Assembly: GCF_003334385.1 (NCBI RefSeq)
Contig: NZ_QOWN01000202.1
Strand: one strand, 5' to 3'
DNA from: Escherichia coli
GTDB taxonomy: Bacteria > Pseudomonadota > Gammaproteobacteria > Enterobacterales > Enterobacteriaceae
Length of the DNA: 328 bases
Position numbers and translations under genes: made by a program
Shown: positions 1 through 328 of the stretch, piece after piece
Numbering within the stretch: position 1 is the stretch's first letter
Layout: each line of letters opens with the position of its first letter
The notes under the pieces: model-generated
The model's database searches: none
What the model saw: only the letters and a program-made list of their open reading frames with translations
Told to the model about the DNA's origin: nothing

Positions 1-230
1 TGCACACCGGATTCCATCCCGCCATCGCGGGAACGCCGGGAAAGGACCACCACATTGCGGCGCAGTTTTCCCCTGCGTACCGGTGCCCGTGACACCACTT
101 CTTCTTTCAGCACATTCGCACCCGCACGGGTTGCCTCACGCAGCACCCGGTTATTTTCCGCACCACTCAGAAGCTGCAAATCACGGCTTATTTCTTCAAG
201 TCCCGAAAAATCCAGCAGGGTTTCGATCAT
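1..230 (-). CDS. Phage neck/tail-component protein, HK97 gp10-like family (putative); N-terminal 76 codons, gene continues past window position 1
   Basis: Seen in sequence: minus-strand ATG at 230-228 with a GGAGG core 6 nt upstream; the frame is open for 76 codons to the window edge. Codon choice is enterobacterial-like (ctg, gaa, gcg, gtg, cgt, ccg, aaa dominate). Translation: MIETLLDFSGLEEISRDLQLLSGAENNRVLREATRAGANVLKEEVVSRAPVRRGKLRRNVVVLSRRSRDGGMESGV. Family call is from memory: the 'GL-EL' N-terminus followed by an 'APV-x-G-LRR-' motif resembles the HK97 gp10-like family (Pfam PF04883, as I recall). No search was run. Confidence 0.78.
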   Translation of the reverse strand, partial: MIETLLDFSGLEEISRDLQLLSGAENNRVLREATRAGANVLKEEVVSRAPVRRGKLRRNVVVLSRRSRDGGMESGV

Positions 231-328
231 TTTTCCCCTCCCAGCCGACAAAGAATTTCCAGGCGCCCGCCGGTCGCATCCGGCACGGGCACCCCGACAA
301 CATTCAGGATACAGTCACGCCAGGGACC
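227..328 (-). CDS. C-terminal 33 codons of an upstream phage morphogenesis gene (possibly a head-closure/head-tail adaptor protein); 5' end lies beyond window position 328
   Basis: Seen in sequence: minus-strand frame open from position 328 to the TGA at 229-227, translating GPWRDCILNVVGVPVPDATGGRLEILCRLGGEK*. The stop overlaps the downstream ATG (ATGA), a typical coupled-gene junction. Codon usage is reasonable (ctg, ccg, gcg, ggc, gaa). The product guess is inference from the usual gene order in siphophage neck modules, not from recognisable sequence similarity. Confidence 0.5.
   Translation of the reverse strand, partial: GPWRDCILNVVGVPVPDATGGRLEILCRLGGEK
235..242 (-). promoter_or_regulatory. 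Shine-Dalgarno / ribosome-binding site for the gp10-like gene
   Basis: Seen in sequence: minus strand reads GGGAGGGG (plus-strand cccctccc at 235-242). The GGAGG core at 241-237 sits 6 nt upstream of the ATG at 230-228. The site lies inside the last codons (G-G-E-K) of the upstream gene. Confidence 0.6.

Follow-up and report, generated by a model that had tools for sequence, protein, structure and literature searches.

Base composition of a 328-nucleotide Escherichia coli segment with two partial phage genes: host signature or late-module signature

Can the base composition of a few hundred nucleotides be read as a signature of the genome that carries them, or does it belong to the genetic module of which they are a part? 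The question is raised by a stretch of 328 nucleotides from Escherichia coli (the window), for which the original prediction gave about 58.8% G+C by hand count (193/328) together with a C-rich and pyrimidine-rich plus strand, and held that the GC level, along with a bias toward CTG, GCG and CCG codons, suggests a moderately GC-rich gammaproteobacterial host. A computational recount over positions 1..328 returned the identical figure (193/328, 58.84% G+C; plus strand C 120, G 73, A 71, T 64; coding, minus strand G 120, C 73, T 71, A 64). The C-richness of the plus strand was borne out as well, with a GC skew, (G-C)/(G+C), of -0.244 (C versus G, two-sided binomial p = 0.0009). The strand is pyrimidine-rich in a weaker sense (184/328 or 56.1%, p = 0.03), but the excess is all C since T (64) is less frequent than A (71). 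This composition is real; it is unusual for host DNA and ordinary for the prophage context of the window, which very probably belongs to the late (morphogenesis) operon of an Stx-phage-type lambdoid prophage in the E. coli chromosome and would owe its composition to the late module.

Two partial phage genes on the minus strand

The window carries parts of two genes, both on the minus strand. The gene at 1..230 (ATG at 230-228) is represented by its first 76 codons plus 2 nt, with MIETLLDFSGLEE... as its translation in minus frame 3, and runs past position 1. It is predicted to encode an HK97-gp10 family morphogenesis protein of the Ne1 neck class (neck/tail completion), an assignment in which the curated family cut-off is passed. 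The fragment encoded in the window matches phrog_23409 (1.2e-50) and phrog_5, 'tail completion or Neck1' (1.6e-14), and the full-length protein reaches 82.5 bits against TIGR01725 (cut-off 30.8, profile positions 1-120 of 120 covered) and matches PF04883 (9.2e-10). Full-length proteins for these family tests were taken from the best match among E. coli genomes, which is 99.1% identical to the window (3/328 differences, all synonymous); these differences alter no residue in either minus-strand frame, and the gp10-family protein of this copy shows 0 residue differences across the 76 residues of the window. The gene is located between the Hc1 gene and the tail terminator/completion gene (Tc1) in both the best E. 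coli copy (L001) and the phage YYZ-2008 (L002), the position that marks a member of the Type 1 neck module. The Ne1 superfamily takes in SPP1 gp16.1 and lambda gpZ, and the literature on these two proteins bears only indirectly on a putative role of the gp10-family protein as a neck/tail part of the virion needed for infectivity (Lopes et al., 2014, PMC4362835).

The second gene, at 227..328, encodes a phage head closure protein (Hc1), of which the window holds the last 33 codons and the stop (TGA at 229-227; minus frame 1 translation ...GRLEILCRLGGEK*); it begins beyond position 328. The 33-aa fragment matches phrog_25, 'head closure Hc1' (2.8e-4), and the full-length protein of the 99.1% copy matches PF05521 (3.5e-16, residues 3-111) and lies barely above the cut-off of TIGR01563 (23.7 bits vs 20.6). 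In every annotated match the two genes are named 'phage head closure protein' and 'HK97-gp10 family putative phage morphogenesis protein', and RefSeq gives the same names on the minus strand.

Because the pattern of variable sites and the family matches both fall on the minus strand, and RefSeq annotation agrees, the plus strand is the template for both genes, as had been claimed. Seven related copies vary at 34 sites, of which 26 occupy the third position of a codon in the minus-strand frames, and no single plus frame reaches more than 17/34 by the same count. Coding on the plus strand was therefore rejected (26/34 vs at most 17/34, with all family matches on the minus strand). No stop codon interrupts plus frames 1 and 2 anywhere in the window, and an antisense ORF of 141 aa spans it in the best-match locus (L001 19935-20360 (+)); both were judged to be an artefact of composition, such as would be expected in GC-rich antisense DNA.

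The two genes overlap by the sequence ATGA at 227..230 (minus strand CTGGGAGGGGAAAAATGATCGAAACC), where the head closure stop (229-227) and the gp10-family start (230-228) are interleaved. The same 4-nt overlap of coding sequences is annotated in the best E. coli copy (L001 19784-20230 and 20227-20577), in HK97 (5545-5883 and 5880-6329) and in YYZ-2008. A Shine-Dalgarno-like GGAGG is located at 237..241 on the minus strand, 6 nt upstream of the gp10-family ATG and within the 3' end of the head closure gene, and may serve as a ribosome-binding site. Together, the overlap and the putative ribosome-binding site look like the classic arrangement of translational coupling that is typical of phage late genes. 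A 12-nt direct repeat (63-74 and 228-239; minus strand AGGGGAAAACTG and AGGGGAAAAATG) places one copy at the gp10 ribosome-binding site and start and the other inside gp10, over codons for R-G-K-L; it is probably due to chance. The same probably applies to the short repeats of the window in general, which consist of two-copy families of 10-12 nt. A terminator-like hairpin was found on the plus strand at 171-189, at chance level (1 found vs 0.3 expected) and antisense to the genes. The window showed no match to Rfam at E <= 1 and no sigma-70-like promoter.

Prophage context and distribution in E. coli

Genomic context, host GC and the statistics of the module were read from the 99.1%-identical E. 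coli copy (L001 and L004), which stands in for the window's own flanks. The gene order in this copy is TerS-TerL-MCP-portal-Ad1-Hc1-gp10-Tc-major tail-G/T-TMP-M-L-K-I-J, and the neck genes follow one another in L001 and L002 as head-tail connector, head closure, gp10 family, tail completion gp17 and major tail. This order matches Ad1-Hc1-Ne1-Tc1, described as the 'Type 1 neck' order (Lopes et al., 2014, PMC4362835), which supports the identification of the region as a lambdoid late module. The portal gene of the best E. coli copy is annotated as frameshifted and its lysozyme gene has an internal stop (L001 20910-23494 and 30988-31521), so that this prophage copy is probably defective, to judge from its reading frames. 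It sits beside ompW, with the integrase gene adjoining ompW (L004 13364-15178), and phage records named 'PPompW' carry gp10 proteins that are 98.6% identical (H38). The prophage also carries tRNA-Arg and tRNA-Ile genes downstream of the Q antiterminator region (L001 36551-36712). Stx-type lambdoid phages commonly have tRNA genes at this site. In the stretches of this closest prophage that were retrieved (L001, and L004 as far as the integrase), the annotation lists no Shiga toxin genes.

Among named phages, YYZ-2008 (genus Pankowvirus) encodes the same pair, a head closure protein (YYZ_gp56) and an HK97 gp10 family protein (YYZ_gp57), with 95.4% DNA identity over the whole window and with the 4-nt overlap and the module order of the best E. 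coli copy. It differs from the window at 15 nucleotides and 4 amino acids, and it is Stx-converting, whereas the 99.1% E. coli copy is a prophage beside ompW without Shiga toxin genes in the region examined. HK97 itself places its gene at the same site, between Hc1 and the tail terminator, and its gp10 protein is 74.5% identical to that of the 99.1% copy; for comparison, an Ne1 identity of 76% has been given for HK97 and phage phi4795 (Lopes et al., 2014, PMC4362835). Lambda is less alike in this respect, since it has gpW/FII/Z/U head and neck genes whereas the prophage of the window is HK97-like.

The segment is widespread in E. coli. A megablast search found it in 1,244 of 5,426 complete genomes (1,249 records), and in 1,248 of these 1,249 records at least 80% of the window is covered at some place. 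In a phage collection 92 records match, mostly Stx1- and Stx2-converting phages at 95-96%. Every match with at least 90% identity comes from an E. coli chromosome or an E. coli phage, and since the close matches are thus all from E. coli, the gammaproteobacterial part of the predicted host stands; a low-GC host was not found among the best BLAST matches, but a mid-GC one instead. A 50-mer covering the first 50 nt, with two window-specific variants, is shared by five IMG/VR contigs that differ from the full window at 6-24 positions. A conserved 32-mer had no match among 100,044 species-representative genomes, which, being an exact-match test, is a weak one. In all, 2,912 places in the 1,249 E. 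coli records carry the segment; a single genome has it at no more than 8 of them, and 6 lie on plasmids. A prophage segment so often repeated in E. coli could confuse assembly or mapping.

Six of the differences among copies are clustered (positions 183, 189, 192, 195, 198 and 201), the window carrying A/T where the other allele has G/C. The G/C allele of the patch is common to YYZ-2008 (L002) and the IMG/VR contig L009, and the best E. coli copy carries the allele of the window. From the clustering of these sites, the patch at 183-201 looks like a short stretch of recombination of the kind that ordinary lambdoid mosaicism would leave.

G+C level of the window, the late module and the host

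The host baseline consisted of 217 kb of E. coli chromosome from five sites outside the prophage, cut into 5,259 overlapping windows of 328 nt, with a mean of 51.2% GC (sd 5.4%). Only 4.4% of these host windows reach the GC of the window, 0.67% reach its absolute skew and 0.02% reach both. Among 328-nt windows of the structural module of the best prophage copy (57.5% GC, sd 2.7%), the corresponding figures are 31.6%, 12.6% and 4.6%. The module is thus elevated compared with both the chromosome (51.2%) and the prophage's own lysis and early regions (48.7%). At the boundary of the small-terminase gene (TerS) the 2-kb GC profile falls by a step, with about 57% on the side of the module and about 49% beyond it. 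This is the segmentation known from lambda, whose late genes (191-18903) are at 57.2% GC and the rest at 42.0% and 47.1% (computed on NC_001416). In the explanation favoured here, lambdoid phages are compositionally segmented, with a head-tail module at about 57% GC in a host at about 51% and the rest of the phage at 42-49%.

The comparison with the chromosome does not uphold the GC-rich part of the predicted host. In the genome of the 99.1% copy, the chromosome stands at 51.2% over 217 kb, far below the window, and its GC3 (55.8% over 42 genes) nearly equals that of the window, values that are not those of a native gammaproteobacterial genome of about 57-60% GC. The host is a mid-GC gammaproteobacterium and not a moderately GC-rich one. 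Nor do the codons bear on the matter as had been supposed: ordinary host genes use CTG (53%), GCG (35%) and CCG (53%) as E. coli's own preferred codons, and because these are common in host genes they say nothing in favour of a GC-rich host. By codon position, GC1/GC2/GC3 amounts to 72.5/46.8/56.9% in the window, 64.0/45.6/63.5% in the structural module and 59.9/41.6/55.8% in the 42 host genes. The excess of the window falls almost entirely at positions 1 and 2 and reflects amino-acid composition, with Arg (13.8%), Leu (12.8%), Gly (11.9%), Val (11.9%) and Glu (9.2%) prominent among the encoded residues, and its GC excess comes mostly from protein segments rich in these five residues rather than from synonymous choice. 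Taken as a whole, the structural module has more GC than host genes at each codon position, synonymous sites included.

It is accordingly very improbable that 59% GC and CTG, GCG and CCG codons mirror a moderately GC-rich gammaproteobacterial host. Such a host is suggested by the resemblance of the value to the whole-genome GC of Klebsiella or Serratia, and by gp10 homologues at 68-70% amino-acid identity in Klebsiella phages. Against it stand the confinement of every match of at least 90% to E. coli and its phages, the 51.2% GC of the sampled host DNA, and the equality of GC3 between window and host, the cited codons being normal host preferences. Moreover, Klebsiella is a GC-richer host than E. 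coli, but the gene pair of the sampled Klebsiella phage, Kp4872-1, is at 52.3% GC and so less GC-rich than the E. coli copy of the window. The same Hc1 and gp10 pair is at 43.0% in Proteus phage Pm34, 54.9% in HK97 (skew 0.081; in both values HK97 differs from the window) and 61.1% in Burkholderia phage Bcep176. Since the homologous pair spans 43% to 61% across phages, the value does not identify the host, a caution that the original prediction had itself expressed and that is well founded.

A different explanation is that the late module is a recent import whose source was a phage infecting a GC-richer host, with too little time since for its composition to approach that of E. coli. The module does lie 6 points over the host and 9 over the remaining prophage; lambdoid phages are mosaic, as the six-site patch at 183-201 in some copies illustrates, and the GC of the gene pair broadly tracks that of the host in the Proteus, E. 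coli and Burkholderia phages, which makes a GC-rich past host conceivable. However, the same offset is found in lambda (57.2%) and, more weakly, in HK97, Pm34 and Bcep176, the three phages with separable regions, whose structural modules are 2-7 points richer in GC than their early regions. Recurrence across phages points to a property that structural modules share, not to a single recent transfer. The segment is also very common in E. coli and repeated within genomes (8 places at most), and the conserved 32-mer occurs in 0 of the 100,044 species-representative genomes, the exact-match test being weak. A recent import thus appears quite unlikely, and the composition is better attributed to the lambdoid late module as such. 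Why this module is GC-rich and G-loaded may lie in mutational asymmetry, in selection on the long late mRNA and/or in the ancestry of the module.

The biological weight of these observations is small and the lesson is methodological: the G+C of a 328-nt fragment is an unreliable guide to host GC if the fragment may be prophage, the value here being about 8 points above the host. The GC-rich late arm of lambdoid phages and their G-rich late coding strands have long been known, and both genes are routinely annotated.

G excess of the coding strand

The plus strand is C-rich because the coding strand is G-rich, especially at third positions. The coding-strand GC3 skew is 0.271 in the structural module of the best-copy prophage and 0.272 in the lysis/Q-region genes of the rightward unit, which are at 49% GC; it is 0.160 in the early-right genes, about -0.05 in the oppositely oriented racR, exo, xis and int, and 0.037 in 42 host genes. 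The G excess therefore goes with the rightward transcription unit, whatever the GC level of its genes. Along this unit the third codon positions of the coding strand are 40% G and 23% C, and the skew of 0.27 extends throughout the rightward, Q-dependent late unit (L001 12312-39584 and L004 1-14494). Per gene, the coding-strand GC skew averages 0.173 in the module (0.089-0.284) and 0.057 in host genes (maximum 0.151). In the oppositely oriented genes the G3 excess neither flips nor persists, and this near-zero skew fits neither a purely strand-fixed nor a purely coding-linked cause clearly. Lambda resembles the prophage of the window in having a GC-rich late arm with a G-rich coding strand (skew 0.109; GC3 64.6%), but its G3 excess (GC3 skew 0.138 in the late genes) is about half that of the window's prophage, and HK97 differs more strongly, its late genes having no G3 excess (-0.02).

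Replication could be thought to leave the same mark, the C-richness of the plus strand then being the lagging-strand C excess of the chromosome. Host DNA near the prophage does have the same sign (plus-strand skew -0.026 to -0.041), but this is six to nine times too small, an absolute skew of 0.244 is reached by 0.67% of host windows, and the skew is concentrated in the rightward transcription unit of the prophage. Replication-associated skew is an extremely improbable cause and was rejected on magnitude. Copies of the segment lie on both strands across E. coli genomes.

As regards the origin of the G3 excess in the late unit, it is an unlikely but conceivable proposal, drawn from composition, that the excess is selected, the long late mRNA being kept poor in C-rich/G-poor Rho-loading stretches while C-rich antisense RNA would be an efficient target of Rho; or it might reflect a mutational asymmetry specific to the lineage. 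The G3 excess is a minor curiosity rather than a finding. Szybalski's transcription-direction rule, the purine loading of coding strands, was first described on lambda DNA. The window conforms to it in that its template strand is pyrimidine-rich (56.1%) and its coding strand G-rich, and departs from it in that the asymmetry concerns G versus C alone: with A (64) below T (71), the coding strand is as much G+T-rich as purine-rich. Within the module, the absolute skew of the window (0.244) is near the upper end, being reached by 12.6% of module windows. In the window codon position 2 contributes to it as well, with a skew of +0.29 owing to the abundance of Arg and Gly, where the module has -0.13 and host genes have -0.15.
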